64,000 nt of DNA from an uncultured Mycoplasmatota bacterium. Lineage in GTDB: Bacteria; Bacillota_I; Bacilli_A; RF39; UBA660. Of the stretch, positions 44,828 through 52,339 are shown piece by piece. A program made the position numbers and the translations under genes. The stretch is from positions 1,169 through 65,168 of the forward strand of contig CAMMJA010000003.1 of NCBI GenBank assembly GCA_946497145.1. Reading direction: 5' to 3'. Each line of letters starts with the position of its first letter. The first letter of the stretch is position 1. The notes under the pieces were generated by a model. It ran no database searches, had not been told where the DNA came from, and saw only the letters and a program-made list of their open reading frames with translations.

Positions 44828-47800
44828 GTGAAGAAAAATTATGTTTTGGGAGTCGATATCGGTATTTCATCTGTTGGTTGGGGGCTATTACAATTAAATG
44901 AAAAAAATGAGCCGTTTAAAATACTTGATACCGGTGTTAGGATATTTACTCCAGGAGAAGTGCCTAAAACAGGTGCTAGTAAAGCTTTAGAAAGGCGTCA
45001 AAAAAGGGGAACTAGAAGAATTAATCAAAGAAGAGAATATAGGTTAGATAGAGTTCGACTTCTCTTAAGTAACAATGGCTTTCTTCCTAAAGTTTCCAGT
45101 GAGATTAAACCGAGTGAAAGGGAAGAGATCTTAACATTAGAATTTGATAAGTTATTAAATGAATACTACAAAAATAAAAATACCAATCCTTATGAGTTAA
45201 AAGTAGAAGCATTAAGAAGGAAACTTTCTAATGAAGAGTTAGTCATCATTTTGAATCATTATGCGAAACATCGTGGTTATAAATCTAATAGAGAAGATGC
45301 GAAAGACAGCGAAAATGGTAAAATAAAAACTTCTATTAAAGAAAATGAAAACATCATGAAAGATAAGCACTACGAAATAGTAAGCGAGATGTTTATAAAA
45401 GATGATAAATTTAAAGATAAGATCAGAAATACAACCGATGATTATAAGATGTCTGTCACAAGAGAAATGTATTTAGCAGAAATAGAAAAAGTATTAACTT
45501 CTCAAATTAAATATGGACTCATCACAGAAAAATTTAAAGAGGAATATTTAAACATATGGAAGGGCCAAAGACATTATTCTAAAGGTCCAGGATATTATTT
45601 TTATCAAGAAGATGGTGTTACAAAGAAAAAACTATCTCCTTATGGAGATGAGAAAAGTTTAATCGCAAGAATGGTAGGTACTTGTAAATTTGATCATCTA
45701 CCACGAGCACCTAAATGTGCACCTTCATCTGAACTTTTTGTATTTTTAGAAAGATTATTGAATTTACGTTATAAGAATTTAGATAATTATGAAAAATTAA
45801 ATTCTAATCAAATTAAAAGAATAATAGAACTTGCTAAAACGAAAGATAAAGTTACTTATCAAGATATTGCTAAAATAATGGATTTATCTCATGTAATTTT
45901 TAAAGATAATAAATTGAGTAAAAATGATTATGTGAAATGTATTTCTGAATATAAAACGAAATATAAGATGGAAAAATTTGATTTTAATCAATTAACACTT
46001 GAAGAGAAGGATATCTTTCATGAATTGTTGAACAAGAAAAAAATAGATAGTGATTTTGGAGGAATAAAAACTTATTCTGTTTTTAGAAAAAATTTTACCA
46101 AATGGAACAAAGATGAGTGGGATAGAATCAAAGATAACTTTAAACTATTAGATGAAATTGCTGTGATTGTGACTGATTGCAAACTCGATGAAGATATCAA
46201 AAAAGAGGTCGAGAAATCGGATGCGATAGATGATCGTTATTATGAAGTTATCATTGATTTACCTAACTTAAAAGATCATTTAATGTTATCTTTAAATTTA
46301 ATATATAGATTAATTCCATTCATGTTAGAGGGTAATCGTTATGATGAAGCAATGGGGTTATTAGGGTTCAATCACAGTAATGCGTATGAAGACGCCATCA
46401 AGTATGATTTATTACCTCCAATAGATAGTGAGGATGGTATTACAAATCAAAGAGTTTTAAGAAGCGTTGCTCAAGCAAGAAAAGTAATAAATGCTATTAT
46501 TAAACAATATGGACTCCCTAAAGAAATAAAAATAGAAACGGCAAGAGAATTGGCTAAAACAAGAGAAGAGAGAAACAAAATAGAAAAAGCACAAAAAGAA
46601 AGATTTGAAAATAATTTAAGTATTAAACAATATTTAGCAACACTGTTACCTCATATTTTTCCAAGTGTTGATTATATATCAAGCACAGACTTATTAAAAT
46701 ATAAGTTATGGCAAGAACAAGGGGAACTATGCCCATATTGCCTGGAAAGGATAAAAATAGAGGAACTTTTTGATAATAATATAGTGCAAATAGATCATAT
46801 TTTACCTTATTCTAGAACTTTTGATGATAGTTATTTTAATAAAACTTTGGTATTTACGAAATATAATCAAGAAAAACGAGAAAAGATACCTTACGAGTGG
46901 TTTGGTAATACTATAAAATGGGAAAAATTTAAAAATTATATTATGTCTTTGAATATGAGTGATAGAAAGAAAGATAATTATTTACTTACGAAATTAACGG
47001 ATGAAATGGCTAACGAAATGCGTAATCAAAATTTAAATGATACGAAATATATTAGCAAATATCTAGTAAGTTTTATGAAAGCACATTTAAATGTTGAAAA
47101 AATAAGTTCTTATAGTGGTTCTCTTACAGGTAGATTAAGAGCAAGATGGGGTCTAAATGGTTTAACTCATAGTTTGGAATCAAGCAATTATCGTATAAAG
47201 AGAAACAACTATGAAGAAATAAAAAAGAATAGGGAGAACCATTTACATCATGCGATGGATGCTTTAGTTATCGCTTCTATTACAAAAAGTTTAGAACAAA
47301 AAATAGTTGAATATGAAAAGTTGTATCGCTATTTTGTTAATGCTACGAGTAGTACATTACAAGAATATATGGATCGTAATGATTTTTATATTACGGATTA
47401 TATAGATGAAAAAACAGGAGAAGTTACGAATAAAAGTATAAAAGAGTATATTGAAGATGGTTTAAGAAATGGCAAAATAAAAAATAGTTTAAAACATAAA
47501 GAAGTATATTATTTGGATTTTCCATTACCATATGAAAACTTTGATAAAGAATCTATACTGCGTGTTTATGAAAGAAATGCGGATGTTTTAAGAAGTGAAT
47601 TAAAAGAAATTGGTACTTATACCGATGAAGAACTTAATAGAGTTCATCCAATCTATCCTTCTTTTGCAAAACCAAAATTAAGTGGAGCATTACATAAAGA
47701 AACTTATTATGGTTATAACAAGGAAAAGAATACTTTGACGAATCGAATGAATGTAAATTCTACTAGTTTTAATAGAGAAAAATTAGATAGTATTGTGGAC

Positions 47801-48430
47801 CTAAAAAGTGGTAGTCAAGAAGTATATCGTACTTTGGTAAAATGGTTGGAAGGTTTTAAAAATGGAAAAGAAGCATACGATAAAAAGGGATATCCAATGA
47901 ATGAGAAAAGTGGAAATTTAATCAAAAAAGTTACGATAGAAACACCATATGAAGGTAAAGGTCATTTAATAAACGGAAAATTTGTAGAGAAAGAACATGT
48001 TTATCAGGTAAGTATTTATAAAAAAGATCATGATGATAGATTATATTTTGTAGGTTTTGATTTGTTTGATCTGGCACAAATTAAACGTAACAAAGATTTT
48101 GATTTAGTACTGTGGTATGGTTCAGGTAATTTAAAAATAAATTTAAAATATAGTGAGCTTAATCACGAATATTCTCATTATTTAGATTTACCGAAAAATC
48201 AATTGATAAAAGTTTTTACAACCAATAATATAGAAGTCATTTGTTATGTGGTTGGTTTTTCTAGTGGTGGTTTGTTAGAAGTAAAGGGACTAATTGGCGA
48301 TGGGAAAGATATATATGGCAACAATTGTTTATTTGAAAACCAAAGAAGGCAATATCGAATTGTAATTTCAAATATAAAAGATATTAAGAAGTTAGATATT
48401 ACGGTATTAGGTGAGATTTGTGGGCTATAG
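44828..48430 (+). CDS. cas9: Cas9 (type II effector, 1200 aa)
   Basis: RuvC-I GVDIGISSVGWG, Arg-rich bridge helix RRQKRGTRRINQRREYR, HNH QIDHILPYS...NKTLV, RuvC-III HLHHAMDALVIA. GTG start with a GGAG RBS. Confidence 0.97.
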   Translation: MKKNYVLGVDIGISSVGWGLLQLNEKNEPFKILDTGVRIFTPGEVPKTGASKALERRQKRGTRRINQRREYRLDRVRLLLSNNGFLPKVSSEIKPSEREEILTLEFDKLLNEYYKNKNTNPYELKVEALRRKLSNEELVIILNHYAKHRGYKSNREDAKDSENGKIKTSIKENENIMKDKHYEIVSEMFIKDDKFKDKIRNTTDDYKMSVTREMYLAEIEKVLTSQIKYGLITEKFKEEYLNIWKGQRHYSKGPGYYFYQEDGVTKKKLSPYGDEKSLIARMVGTCKFDHLPRAPKCAPSSELFVFLERLLNLRYKNLDNYEKLNSNQIKRIIELAKTKDKVTYQDIAKIMDLSHVIFKDNKLSKNDYVKCISEYKTKYKMEKFDFNQLTLEEKDIFHELLNKKKIDSDFGGIKTYSVFRKNFTKWNKDEWDRIKDNFKLLDEIAVIVTDCKLDEDIKKEVEKSDAIDDRYYEVIIDLPNLKDHLMLSLNLIYRLIPFMLEGNRYDEAMGLLGFNHSNAYEDAIKYDLLPPIDSEDGITNQRVLRSVAQARKVINAIIKQYGLPKEIKIETARELAKTREERNKIEKAQKERFENNLSIKQYLATLLPHIFPSVDYISSTDLLKYKLWQEQGELCPYCLERIKIEELFDNNIVQIDHILPYSRTFDDSYFNKTLVFTKYNQEKREKIPYEWFGNTIKWEKFKNYIMSLNMSDRKKDNYLLTKLTDEMANEMRNQNLNDTKYISKYLVSFMKAHLNVEKISSYSGSLTGRLRARWGLNGLTHSLESSNYRIKRNNYEEIKKNRENHLHHAMDALVIASITKSLEQKIVEYEKLYRYFVNATSSTLQEYMDRNDFYITDYIDEKTGEVTNKSIKEYIEDGLRNGKIKNSLKHKEVYYLDFPLPYENFDKESILRVYERNADVLRSELKEIGTYTDEELNRVHPIYPSFAKPKLSGALHKETYYGYNKEKNTLTNRMNVNSTSFNREKLDSIVDLKSGSQEVYRTLVKWLEGFKNGKEAYDKKGYPMNEKSGNLIKKVTIETPYEGKGHLINGKFVEKEHVYQVSIYKKDHDDRLYFVGFDLFDLAQIKRNKDFDLVLWYGSGNLKINLKYSELNHEYSHYLDLPKNQLIKVFTTNNIEVICYVVGFSSGGLLEVKGLIGDGKDIYGNNCLFENQRRQYRIVISNIKDIKKLDITVLGEICGL

Positions 48431-49307
48431 GCAAGTTGTTATTAAAAAATGTGAAAAACTTCATTTAGAAGATAGGCAACTAATAGTAAGTAAAGATAAT
48501 AATAGTTATAAAGTTCCACTTGAAGATATTAACTTTGTTTTGATAGAAGATAATACAACTACCATTACATCCAAAATTTTAGCAGCTTTTGGAGAAGAAG
48601 GAATATGTTTTATAGTTTGCGATGATAAGTTTGAACCAGTCAGTATTATGTATCCATACAATTATCATTTTAAACAATTAGAAAACATAGAAAAACAATT
48701 ATTTTTAGATCATAATTCTAAAAAGATAATATGGAAAGAAATCATAAAAGCAAAAATAGAAAATGAGATAGCTGTATTGTGTCAGACAAGTAAAGAAGAA
48801 AAGGTGATTAACAAATTATCACAATATGTGACGGAAGTAAGTCCAGGAGATGAAACCAATAGGGAAGGATTATCTGCAAAAATGTATTTTAGAAGCTTGT
48901 TTGGAAGCGAATTTATAAGATTTTATGATGATGCTATGAATGCAGGATTAAATTATGCTTATCAAATTGTTAAGAGTTCTATCATTAGAACTCTTAGCAT
49001 TTATGGCCTTAATTCTTATTTAGGGGTGAATCATAAATCTAAAGTAAATAATTTTAATTTAGTGTATGATTTGATAGAACCATATAGAGCAATAATAGAT
49101 TTATATGTATATAAATTAAAAGAACGTATCACATCGCCTCTTTCATTTGAAGTGAGAAAAGAATTGATCAATGTTTTAAATATACCAGTTATGACTAATA
49201 ATAAGAAATGTAGTTTAGAATATAGTATTGAAATATTAATAAAAAGTTATATCAAAACTATTAGTACAGGAGAAGTTGATTTGATATTTCCAAAGATTAT
49301 AGAATAG
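48411..49307 (+). CDS. cas1: Cas1 integrase
   Basis: 298 aa with NAGLNYAYQIV...GVNHKS...NLVYDLIEPYRAIID motifs. Overlaps cas9 by 20 nt. Confidence 0.9.
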   Translation: MRFVGYRQVVIKKCEKLHLEDRQLIVSKDNNSYKVPLEDINFVLIEDNTTTITSKILAAFGEEGICFIVCDDKFEPVSIMYPYNYHFKQLENIEKQLFLDHNSKKIIWKEIIKAKIENEIAVLCQTSKEEKVINKLSQYVTEVSPGDETNREGLSAKMYFRSLFGSEFIRFYDDAMNAGLNYAYQIVKSSIIRTLSIYGLNSYLGVNHKSKVNNFNLVYDLIEPYRAIIDLYVYKLKERITSPLSFEVRKELINVLNIPVMTNNKKCSLEYSIEILIKSYIKTISTGEVDLIFPKIIE

Positions 49308-49319
49308 AAGTGAAATGGT

Positions 49320-49643
49320 GTGATAAATAGATTTATGAGATTAATCGTAATGTTTGATTTGCCAGTAGTTACAGCAGAAGAAAAACAAATATATAGCAAA
49401 TTTAGAAAGTTTTTATTGAAAGATGGCTATATTATGATTCAATTTTCGATATATTCTAGAATTTGTAAAAATAGTGATGATGTAACCAAACACATTAATA
49501 GAATAAGACAAAATTTGCCAGATAAAGGTAATATTAGATTATTACAAGTTACAGAAAAACAATACCAAGATATGATGTTGTTATGTGGTAGCAAAGTAAC
49601 AGAAGAAGATATCTCTATTGAAAATATGATTGTATTTGAATAA
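49320..49643 (+). CDS. cas2: Cas2
   Basis: ~105 aa with MRLIVMFDLPV and a ferredoxin-like pattern. Start is GTG 49320 or ATG 49335. Confidence 0.85.
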   Translation: MINRFMRLIVMFDLPVVTAEEKQIYSKFRKFLLKDGYIMIQFSIYSRICKNSDDVTKHINRIRQNLPDKGNIRLLQVTEKQYQDMMLLCGSKVTEEDISIENMIVFE

Positions 49644-49672: not shown

Positions 49673-49679
49673 AATAAAC

Positions 49680-49776
49680 AAAAAGGTCGACTTGATTAAA
49701 GTTCGACCAATTCTTAGGCATTAGTGCCTTATTACAGTAACCTGTAAAAATTTGAGTAATATACATCTTTCGATGT
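49680..49776 (-). ncRNA. tracrRNA
   Basis: Minus-strand AUUACUCAAAUUUUUACAGGUUACUGUAA pairs with repeat nt 2-31, with one mismatch, one G-U pair and one bulged U. It is followed by the nexus-like UAAGGCACUAAUGCC hairpin. The terminator is GGUCGA...UCGACC plus U5. Confidence 0.85.
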
Positions 49777-49778
49777 AA

Positions 49779-50846
49779 TTAGATCATATCAATAATTTCA
49801 TAATCTGTCAATAACTTTTCGCAAACTAATTTTAGTAATTCAAGTTCATATTTGTCTTTATAAAAAATATAGTTATTTAAAATACCATTGTATAAAGATG
49901 TAAAATAAACTTTATTACTAACTAAAATAATACCGATATTGTTTTTTTGAAACATATACAAATTATTTTTTATTCGGTTTAAATCATTTTTGTTTATTAG
50001 ATGATTATTTTCTTGTATAAATTCTGCGTATTCTATTTTGCTATTAGATTTTTTATATTGTTCAAATAATATATGTTTTTTTAATATATTATCAATATTA
50101 TTGAAGTTAATTAATTTATTATCTTTAATTTTATAAATACTGTAATCATCAGGATCTAAATAACGATATATGTTAGAATTATTTGTGCTGATGATGAAAT
50201 GACAATGATGTTTATTGAGAATTGTGATTAAATTTAAAATTTCTATTATGCTTTCATTATCTAAATATAAATCAAAGTCGTCAATCATAATAAATGTTTC
50301 TTTGTCTTTGCTAGTATTAAAAAGAAGTAGTTGATATAATAATTTTCTTCTATCACTTTTTGATATTTCTTTTGTATTAATTAAGTCATTTACATAAATC
50401 GTGGTAAATTTATCAATTATTTTATCGATGTCATCAATATCTATGTTAAATGTTATTTTATTTTTAGAATTATTATTTATATTTTTTTCTAAATATTTAT
50501 TAACGGCATTATCGATGTTATCTAGACTATTATTTATTTCGGCTAGTATTTTTTCTTTATCGATGGTTTTATATATTGCATCGTATAAGGAAGTTTTAAA
50601 AATATTATTTTGGGTAAACTTGAATTCGTTATTAAAGTCCGTTTCTTCGTCAAAATAAATAATATTGTATTCATCTTTGTTTATTTCTAAAGAATTTAAA
50701 TAAAAGTTTTTATTTTTCCCACTTAATCCTTCTTTTATTAATTTTAATAGAGTTGTTTTTCCTGATTTGTTAGAACCAAATATTATTAGATTGTTATTAA
50801 AAGATATGGAAGAATCAATGTTTTGATATTTAAAATTTATTTGCAT
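49779..50846 (-). CDS. P-loop (ABC/AAA_21-like) ATPase of unknown function inside the CRISPR-Cas locus
   Basis: 355 aa. Walker A GSNKSGKT (aa 24-31), ABC-signature-like ISKSDRRKLLYQLLL (aa 161-175), Walker B TFIMIDDFD (aa 184-192). GGTGA RBS. Very N/K/I-rich and visibly more AT-rich than the cas genes. Confidence 0.75.
   Translation of the reverse strand: MQINFKYQNIDSSISFNNNLIIFGSNKSGKTTLLKLIKEGLSGKNKNFYLNSLEINKDEYNIIYFDEETDFNNEFKFTQNNIFKTSLYDAIYKTIDKEKILAEINNSLDNIDNAVNKYLEKNINNNSKNKITFNIDIDDIDKIIDKFTTIYVNDLINTKEISKSDRRKLLYQLLLFNTSKDKETFIMIDDFDLYLDNESIIEILNLITILNKHHCHFIISTNNSNIYRYLDPDDYSIYKIKDNKLINFNNIDNILKKHILFEQYKKSNSKIEYAEFIQENNHLINKNDLNRIKNNLYMFQKNNIGIILVSNKVYFTSLYNGILNNYIFYKDKYELELLKLVCEKLLTDYEIIDMI
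49783..49811 (-). promoter_or_regulatory. tracrRNA promoter embedded in the last 11 codons of the ATPase ORF
   Basis: Minus-strand TTGACA (49811-49806), 17-nt spacer, TATGAT (49788-49783). Predicted TSS near 49776. Confidence 0.65.
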
Positions 50847-50879
50847 ATACTTATCACCTATATGAATTATATCAAAAGA

Positions 50880-50908
50880 TTGTAAAAAATAGTAAATTAT
50901 TATATAAT
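50880..50908 (+). promoter_or_regulatory. CRISPR leader promoter
   Basis: TTGTAA, 17-nt spacer, TATAAT. Predicted TSS ~3 nt before repeat 1. The whole leader is only 71 bp (50847-50917). Confidence 0.55.
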
Positions 50909-50917
50909 GAATTTGAG

Positions 50918-52339
50918 GTTACAGTACCCTGTGAAATTTGAGTAATATTGATGAACTTATAACGCATATAACGACAGTGTGTAGTTACAGTACCCTGTGA
51001 AATTTGAGTAATATTGATGAACTTATAACGCATATAACGACAGTGTATAGTTACAGTACCCTGTGAAATTTGAGTAATATTGATGTTATATGCCTCTTGA
51101 ACCTTTTGCAATGCAGTTACAGTACCCTGTGAAATTTGAGTAATATTGATGAACTTATAATGCTTCTAACGACAGTATATAGTTACAGTACCCTGTGAAA
51201 TTTGAGTAATATTGATGTACACCAGTATTTGAAGATAATAGTATATAGTTACAGTACCCTGTGAAATTTGAGTAATATTGATGAAATGAATTTGCTTTTA
51301 AATTTATAATCAGGTTACAGTACCCTGTGAAATTTGAGTAATATTGATGAACTTATAATGCATATAACGACAGTATATAGTTACAGTACCCTGTGAAATT
51401 TGAGTAATATTGATGTTTAATTTCGCTAATATGGTTAAAAATAAAGTTACAGTACCCTGTGAAATTTGAGTAATATTGATGATCTACCCAATATCCAGCC
51501 AAAGCACGGTCGTTACAGTACCCTGTGAAATTTGAGTAATATTGATGTGTGTGATGATCATGATCAGGTTGCCAGAAGTTACAGTACCCTGTGAAATTTG
51601 AGTAATATTGATGTCTGCTCAGTCAGAAGAGGATACGATTGTGGTTACAGTACCCTGTGAAATTTGAGTAATATTGATGCCTGAGATTCGGGCATTGGTA
51701 AAGAAAAGAGTTACAGTACCCTGTGAAATTTGAGTAATATTGATGGAACCATATTCTGCCATTTCTAAACAAGTAGTTACAGTACCCTGTGAAATTTGAG
51801 TAATATTGATGCTATTATTTTTTAACTCTTTTACATTTTCTGTTACAGTACCCTGTGAAATTTGAGTAATATTGATGAATGCTGTTAACATCAAATGATA
51901 AATAACCGTTACAGTACCCTGTGAAATTTGAGTAATATTGATGGGTTGTATGTCAATAACCTAAATTAGATTAGTTACAGTACCCTGTGAAATTTGAGTA
52001 ATATTGATGTTGTTCAAAAAACAAAAGAAATGTTCAAGTGTTACAGTACCCTGTGAAATTTGAGTAATATTGATGATTGACAGAGTTCAAGAATGAAGAA
52101 CAAATGTTACAGTACCCTGTGAAATTTGAGTAATATTGATGTTATCTTGCAAAACTGCATTTACATAGTTCGTTACAGTACCCTGTGAAATTTGAGTAAT
52201 ATTGATGTTAGCAATCCTATACTCACTTGTCTCCAACGTTACAGTACCCTGTGAAATTTGAGTAATATTGATGAAAAGTTTATTAACTATTGAAGAAATA
52301 ACTGTTACAGTACCCTGTGAAATTTGAGTAATATTTATA
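50918..52339 (+). CRISPR. CRISPR array: 22 x 36-bp repeats (GTTACAGTACCCTGTGAAATTTGAGTAATATTGATG), 21 x 30-bp spacers
   Basis: All 22 repeat starts were checked at an exact 66-bp period from 50918 to 52304. The last repeat is degenerate (..ATATTTATA). Orientation follows from tracrRNA complementarity, the leader promoter and the position of the degenerate repeat. Confidence 0.98.

Follow-up and report, generated by a model that had tools for sequence, protein, structure and literature searches.

In type I-C CRISPR arrays of Legionella pneumophila, Rao et al. (2016; PMC5071653) described the same or overlapping spacers against the mobile element LME-1, of which the newer matches LME-1 and the older has mismatches in the seed or the protospacer adjacent motif (PAM). 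The authors read these spacers as a record of an arms race, left by repeated invasion by closely related elements. In the S. thermophilus CRISPR1 system, served by St1Cas9, phage 2972 escapes when a point mutation alters its protospacer or PAM, to which the hosts respond with new spacers (PMC4453577, PMC6452269); a term search of these two papers found no report of re-capture of the mutated protospacer itself. In Clostridioides difficile, the matches of spacers to resident and related prophages are off by about one nucleotide, both synonymously and nonsynonymously (Hargreaves et al. 2014; PMC4173771). Here we analysed a 64,000-nucleotide (nt) stretch of DNA from an uncultured Mycoplasmatota bacterium (hereafter, the window; contig CAMMJA010000003.1 of assembly GCA_946497145.1, positions 1,169 to 65,168), which encodes Cas9 and carries a CRISPR array in which four of the first seven spacers on the leader side (S1, S2, S4 and S7) are variants of a single 30-nt sequence. 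On balance, we think that these four were captured separately from diverged members of one mobile-element population.

The locus is like the Legionella arrays in that several spacers of one array appear to fall on the same stretch of one mobile element. The two cases differ in that the Legionella system is type I-C, with demonstrated priming and a known target (LME-1), whereas the system in the window is Cas9-based and its spacers are in exact register. With S. thermophilus CRISPR1 the locus shares a Cas9, 36-nt repeats and 30-nt spacers, and its candidate PAM, NNAG, resembles NNAGAAW; the window Cas9 is, however, nearer to other solved Cas9 chains than to St1Cas9. As in C. difficile, three other spacers of the window array (S3, S11 and S17) match a prophage resident in the same genome with few differences, but the C. 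difficile arrays are type I-B and the variation described there lies on the phage side, not in an allelic series within one array. The general phenomenon is already documented, and what the window adds is a clean case from a Cas9 array, with four members in exact register, rather than a new principle.

Four spacers of the array are variants of one 30-mer

The array occupies positions 50918-52339 (plus strand), where 22 repeats, each of 36 nt (GTTACAGTACCCTGTGAAATTTGAGTAATATTGATG), alternate with 21 spacers, all 30 nt long, at a perfect period of 66 nt. All 21 full repeats are identical; the terminal one (52304-52339) has a degenerate 3' end. A first-pass annotation, made from the letters of the window, had described spacers 1, 2, 4 and 7 as point variants of one 30-mer, and parsing of the array confirmed their sequences and positions. 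All on the plus strand, they are S1 at 50954-50983 (AACTTATAACGCATATAACGACAGTGTGTA), with C10, A13, A15, G26 and G28; S2 at 51020-51049 (ending in GTGTATA), with C10, A13, A15, G26 and A28; S4 at 51152-51181 (AACTTATAATGCTTCTAACGACAGTATATA), with T10, T13, C15, A26 and A28; and S7 at 51350-51379 (AACTTATAATGCATATAACGACAGTATATA), with T10, A13, A15, A26 and A28. Written as one pattern, the family site is AACTTATAAYGCWTMTAACGACAGTRTRTA.

Members of the family differ from each other by 1-5 nt, so that 25-29 of 30 positions are identical in any pair, and the variable positions are 10, 13, 15, 26 and 28 only. Register and length (30 nt) are the same in all four. The spacers interleaved with them, S3 (51086-51115, plus strand; between S2 and S4), S5 (51218-51247, plus strand) and S6, lie outside the family and are unique, without any duplicated spacer block. 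In their common register and length, their few variable positions and their unduplicated neighbours, S1, S2, S4 and S7 have the features expected of an allelic series. Among 102 spacers compared (those of the window array and of three related arrays from public assemblies), the next-best pair agreed at 20 of 30 positions, and the 81 spacers of the three related arrays contained no second such family. The family is far beyond chance and unusual for the lineage.

The 3' octamer of S5 (AGTATATA) is common to S4 and S7, a sharing that the first-pass annotation had also pointed out and that is indeed present. Its significance is borderline: the chance estimate within the window array is ~1.5e-3, and among all 5151 spacer pairs ~0.2 pairs with an 8-nt common suffix were expected and 2 were seen. 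We gave the octamer little weight because a similar, unrelated 8-nt 3' suffix coincidence occurs in the array of a relative (spacers 10 and 56 of locus L024). Neither S5 nor S6 had an exact match in IMG/VR.

Array orientation and the order of the alleles

Four features confirmed that the CRISPR RNA (crRNA) is read from the plus strand and that the 3' end of each spacer adjoins the PAM. The first is the 71-nt leader (50847-50917, plus strand), in which a promoter-like TTGTAA-17-TATAAT (50880-50908) ends 9 nt 5' of repeat 1. The second is a candidate trans-activating CRISPR RNA (tracrRNA) on the minus strand (49675-49776), with an anti-repeat at ~49735-49770 and, after it, a nexus-like hairpin and a terminator (the hairpin at 49685-49708 with its T-run), preceded by a candidate promoter, TTGACA-17-TATGAT (49811-49783, minus strand). 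Read directly from the sequence, region 49735-49770 resembles the plus-strand repeat, and its minus-strand transcript is therefore the anti-repeat; the predicted tracrRNA-repeat duplex has an energy of -37.8 kcal/mol, vs -14.4 +/- 2.5 kcal/mol for shuffled repeats. The third is the degenerate repeat at the far end, and the fourth is the position of the PAMs on the 3' side of four protospacers (see below), which agrees with a plus-strand crRNA. With this orientation, positions 26 and 28 of the family lie 5 and 3 nt from the PAM, and the earlier placement of these two positions on the PAM-proximal side was correct.

The leader (left) end is likely the newest end of the array, given the leader promoter, the degenerate far-end repeat and the fact that the leader-adjacent spacers are different in a sister contig of the window (L033). 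The family had been described as four of the seven most recently acquired spacers. That its members are four of the seven nearest the leader is directly visible, and that these seven are the newest depends on a polarity that we infer.

Two allele groups follow the array order, S7 and S4 having T10, A26 and A28, and S2 and S1 having C10 and G26. If the leader end is the newest, S7 and S4 would be the older pair and S2 and S1 the newer. S1 equals S2 with the addition of G28, and the series S7 -> S2 -> S1 adds a change 5 nt from the PAM and, in S1, a further one at 3 nt. What sets S4 apart from S7, on the other hand, lies wholly on the PAM-distal side, at distances of 16 and 18 nt. Mismatches so far from the PAM are a poor escape route from Cas9, and S4 thus looks like standing diversity and not like escape. 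The series S7 -> S2 -> S1 fits escape followed by renewed immunity, and fits equally well two related, co-circulating lineages.

Read in frame +1, the family encodes the peptides TYNAYNDSV (S1 and S2), TYNAYNDSI (S7) and TYNASNDSI (S4). At three of the five variable sites the change falls on a third codon position and is synonymous in this frame, and the other two give one I/V and one Y/S replacement. When five random changes were simulated on the same tree, at least three synonymous changes in the best open frame were obtained with P = 0.11-0.15.

Other spacers match a resident prophage

All 21 spacers of the window were searched locally against the whole genome bin. Contig C2 of this bin carries a prophage that extends from ~49.5 kb to the contig end at 76 kb, where it is cut (loci L070 and L071). 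Its genes include those for the small and large terminase, portal, head protease, tail proteins and endolysin, together with a DNA methyltransferase, NinB, SSB and an exonuclease. S3 matched C2:58452-58481 at 29 of 30 positions (1 mismatch), spacer 17 (S17) matched at C2:51881 with 27/30 (3 mismatches) and spacer 11 (S11) at C2:49280 with 25/30 (5 mismatches); the match of spacer 10 to the prophage was weaker (23/30). Spacer 2 of the sister array on L033 also matched, at C2:50209 (25/30, 5 mismatches). A match of S5 to the prophage (22/30) was set aside as being at chance level, as an equal match was found elsewhere in the genome.

The 3' flanks of the four protospacers with at most 5 mismatches are GTAGAT (S3), CAAGCA, TTAGAA and CTAGAA. 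AG stands at +3/+4 in all four (P ~8e-6, given the AG frequency of the prophage), which suggests NNAG(A/C)(A/T) as a candidate PAM for the 1200-aa (amino acid) Cas9 of the window. The first-pass annotation had proposed deriving a PAM from the flanks of the family's own protospacers; no such protospacer was found in the collections searched, and the NNAG candidate comes instead from the matches of other spacers to the C2 prophage.

The 14 mismatches of these four spacer-prophage pairs correspond to only 2 amino acid changes in prophage genes. With 1-5 mostly silent changes per 30 nt relative to the stored spacers, the phages of this host vary at the same scale as the spacer family, a comparison to be read with the caution that the bin may mix strains. 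The single mismatch between S3 and the prophage is a synonymous base 7 nt from the PAM, in a 642-aa minus-strand open reading frame (ORF) of the structural-gene region that had no PHROG match. With its allele opposite S3, the prophage itself offers an example of one silent change on the seed side, and a stored spacer lies one such base away from the resident prophage. This near-perfect self-target is either an escape allele that allowed lysogeny or the product of a mixed bin, in which some strains have the spacer or the prophage and others lack it.

As a practical result, the matches link the host to a temperate phage family, in addition to giving a candidate NNAG PAM for its Cas9. Relatives of the C2 prophage were sparse: terminase relatives in IMG/VR reached at most about 62% identity, no close terminase was found in 40 relatives, and prophages with a related SSB (82-88% identity) had no spacer match.

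Separate captures from a polymorphic target as the best explanation

Given these observations, S1, S2, S4 and S7 are probably separate, in-register captures of a single PAM-flanked site from sequence-diverged members of one mobile-element population, and the source element would most likely be a temperate phage of the host. The variants would have entered a working type II (Cas9) array at different times, each of them at the leader end. Selection of the PAM by Cas9 and a Cas1-Cas2 ruler that sets 30 nt would give identical boundaries to every capture made at one PAM, and the spacers would then differ only where the donor alleles differed. A series such as S7 -> S2 -> S1 is how renewal of immunity against seed-variant phages would be expected to look.

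We favour separate captures on the following grounds. Register and length are identical, the interleaved spacers are unique and no block is duplicated; the intact cas9-cas1-cas2 genes, the tracrRNA duplex and the leader promoter support the orientation and a working system; the phages of the host show silent-biased variation of the same size as that of the family; and the array order matches both the allele groups and the nested series of changes. The variants would accordingly stem from donor alleles, and the site would be a hotspot of acquisition or of selection. The 26.5-kb prophage fragment contains from 351 (NNAGAAW) to 2812 (NNAG) candidate PAM sites, and if sites were sampled uniformly, the same one being hit by four captures out of seven would have P ~1e-9 to 1e-6. 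Uniform sampling is thus excluded, and a hotspot, selection, a very small target or capture guided by a resident spacer is needed. Strong sampling bias is known in type II adaptation. The arms race proposed in the first-pass annotation is partly supported: the structural claims behind it hold, and it remains the likeliest explanation, with circumstantial support from the prophage.

If the four captures were separate, the array would hold a natural, time-ordered record of a host renewing its immunity at one site as its phages change. They would also suggest that, in an uncultured, Firmicute-like lineage with small genomes, a Cas9 system has a very strong hotspot of acquisition or of selection.

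Of the other explanations, the one that survives best, though we consider it unlikely, is duplication of repeat-spacer units within the array (by slippage or recombination between identical repeats) followed by drift through point mutation. S1 and S2 are adjacent and one base apart, as a tandem copy of one unit with one mutation would be, and the synonymous-site simulation does not reject random mutation (P = 0.11-0.15). S4 and S7, however, are set apart by the unrelated S3, S5 and S6 with no duplicated block, and the variants differ at up to 5 of 30 positions (17%), vs 2.5-4.4% between the flanking DNA of the window and that of sister strains of the same species. One of these sister strains (L033) already has four entirely different leader-adjacent spacers, which indicates that spacers turn over faster than point mutations accumulate. 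The identity of the 21 full repeats also speaks against duplication with drift, even though repeats are under selection. It had been claimed that simple duplication would not produce the observed pattern, which holds for exact copies; duplication followed by mutation could produce it, especially in the case of S1 and S2.

Slightly less probable is a single target genome with several diverged copies of the site, whether repeated inside one gene or spread over paralogues, and without an arms race. Such a target would explain several similar spacers without repeated encounters, and the 3' octamer of S5 could then be a further, more distant copy of the motif. The resident prophage fragment, however, has no repeat family of this kind and no match to S1, S2, S4 or S7, and the same 30-nt register with 25-29 of 30 positions identical is more allele-like than would suit old paralogues.

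We regard as improbable a guide-directed re-acquisition, in which a resident crRNA that binds a seed-variant target without cutting it would steer Cas9-Cas1-Cas2 to the same protospacer, in register. It would account for four of the seven leader-end spacers falling on one site, a result that uniform sampling cannot give, and for the seed positions at which the members of S7 -> S2 -> S1 differ. It does not suit S4 and S7, which differ only PAM-distally, and the data are accounted for no less well by selection or a plain hotspot. Two further points count against it: we know of no mechanism of guide-directed re-capture (a 'memory update') in type II systems, and type II-A priming as reported depends on cleavage and gives spacers close to the cut rather than at it. 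Priming of the type I kind is not supported here either, as cas9, cas1 and cas2 were the only Cas-family matches among the ORFs scanned around the array, with no Cas3 or Cascade.

The least probable explanation, an assembler that strung together strain variants of one spacer from a mixed population, would suit a 36-contig, 89.7%-complete metagenome bin whose sister contigs L033 and L034 break within or just past their first repeats (such arrays being hard to assemble), but placing S1 before S2 needs k-mers that join the ...GTA spacer end to the repeat and AACTTATAAC, which in a de Bruijn assembly should be real in some molecule, the 66-nt period is perfect with unique spacers interleaved, and even with a wrong order four alleles would exist in the population.

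Searches for the protospacer of the family

Several results weigh against separate captures from a polymorphic target, and most of them come from searches for the protospacer. In the own genome (a pattern search with at most 3 mismatches and a scan with at most 9), no protospacer of the family was found up to 6 mismatches; the best matches, with 7-9 mismatches, were read as chance. Searches of INPHARED phages and PLSDB plasmids by blastn, both for a single spacer and for the array as a whole, found no family protospacer, and neither did four patterns run against IMG/VR, including one that freed every wobble position, where the pattern matches had 9-13 mismatches to the family and were rejected. 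The contigs of species-representative genomes (two patterns) and 400 genomes of the same family likewise contained none.

In a metagenome contig collection, searched with two patterns, no family protospacer was accepted. The loosest pattern, with every putative wobble position free, gave 31 metagenome matches, the best of them with 4 and 5 mismatches. The match with 4 mismatches (L056) has a stop codon in the proposed frame; it and the match with 5 mismatches (L052) lie in AT-rich DNA, have no other spacer match and are what the chance-level number of matches would include, and both were rejected. Six-frame translations of the own genome and of the phage loci retrieved did not contain the peptide TYNA[YS]NDS[VI].

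Three further points belong on the same side. The synonymous excess agrees with coding polymorphism but is not significant alone; the polarity of acquisition we infer, as none of the related arrays recovered had trailer spacers in common with the window; and the structure of the array rests on one metagenome-assembled contig. The first-pass annotation had suggested looking for a polymorphic target in phage, plasmid and metagenome databases and had named the lack of any matching protospacer family as evidence against its reading. For public data, such a lack is formally what was found. The failed searches mean only that the target of the family is unsampled in public data.

cas genes and system type

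The cas genes lie upstream of the array on the plus strand. The 1200-aa Cas9 (44828-48430) matches Pfam HNH_4 and RuvC_III and the NCBIfam model TIGR01865 Cas9 (587 bits vs a cut-off of 100). Among solved structures it is nearest to Cas9 chains 1055-1154 residues long (E 1e-94 to 1e-106), which we take to be enzymes of type II-C, for example those of Neisseria and Geobacillus; Protein Data Bank (PDB) chain 6rj9, labelled S. thermophilus 1 Cas9, matched at ~5e-45. cas1 (48411-49307) matches Pfam Cas_Cas1 (3e-28), and its close homologues are called at 295 aa, one of them being named 'NMENI subtype' by its source. cas2 (49320-49643) matches Pfam CRISPR_Cas2 (2e-17).

Between the tracrRNA and the leader, on the minus strand, lies a gene for a 355-aa P-loop ATPase-like protein (49779-50846), the position and orientation of which are kept in the related loci L024-L026 and in L033. 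The protein had weak ABC/AAA matches only (Pfam, NCBIfam and PDB) and no match to Csn2 in these three collections, and no Csn2 or Cas4 model of Pfam or NCBIfam matched at the locus. The Cas9 domains, the candidate tracrRNA and the 3' PAM identify a type II (Cas9) CRISPR-Cas locus, and the choice between II-A and II-C leaves the reading of the spacers unchanged. No second array of the window repeat was found in the own genome.

Sister strains, related arrays and genome context

Look-ups by exact protein yielded only one start of a sister array, that on L033, a contig 95.6% identical to the window and with the same repeat. The 60 nt directly 5' of repeat 1 are identical in L033 and the window, and the flanking DNA of sister strains differs from that of the window by 2.5-4.4%. 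The four leader-adjacent spacers that L033 holds before its contig end are all different from those of the window. Related strains had been proposed as a means to read the order in which the variants were gained; L033, with its four different spacers, was the one such comparison.

The window repeat was absent from 60 relatives. Related loci in ENA assemblies, L024/L025 (8498-12230) and L026 (7476-8898), have an identical Cas1 protein (P0002), and their arrays of 57 and 22 repeats have no spacer in common with each other or with the window. The first 27 nt of the repeat are kept in L024, L025 and L026, and the repeats end in GTATTTATT or GTATTTATC, vs ATATTGATG in the window. From these sequences, the 3' end of the repeat appears to evolve while the part that would pair with the tracrRNA is kept. 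Near that 3' end, at repeat positions ~22-31 (TGAGTAATAT), a TG-n-n-TAATAT stretch resembles an extended -10 box. Neisseria II-C arrays have crRNA promoters inside their repeats, to which this stretch bears a likeness.

The bin from which the window comes is metagenome-derived, with 36 contigs, 0.98 Mb, a completeness of 89.7% and 32% G+C. The 400 sampled genomes of the same family range from 0.4 to 1.7 Mb and are mostly about 1 Mb. The window also encodes the spore-coat genes cotJB and cotJC, which, together with a CRISPR-Cas locus and a prophage, make a notable load for a small genome.

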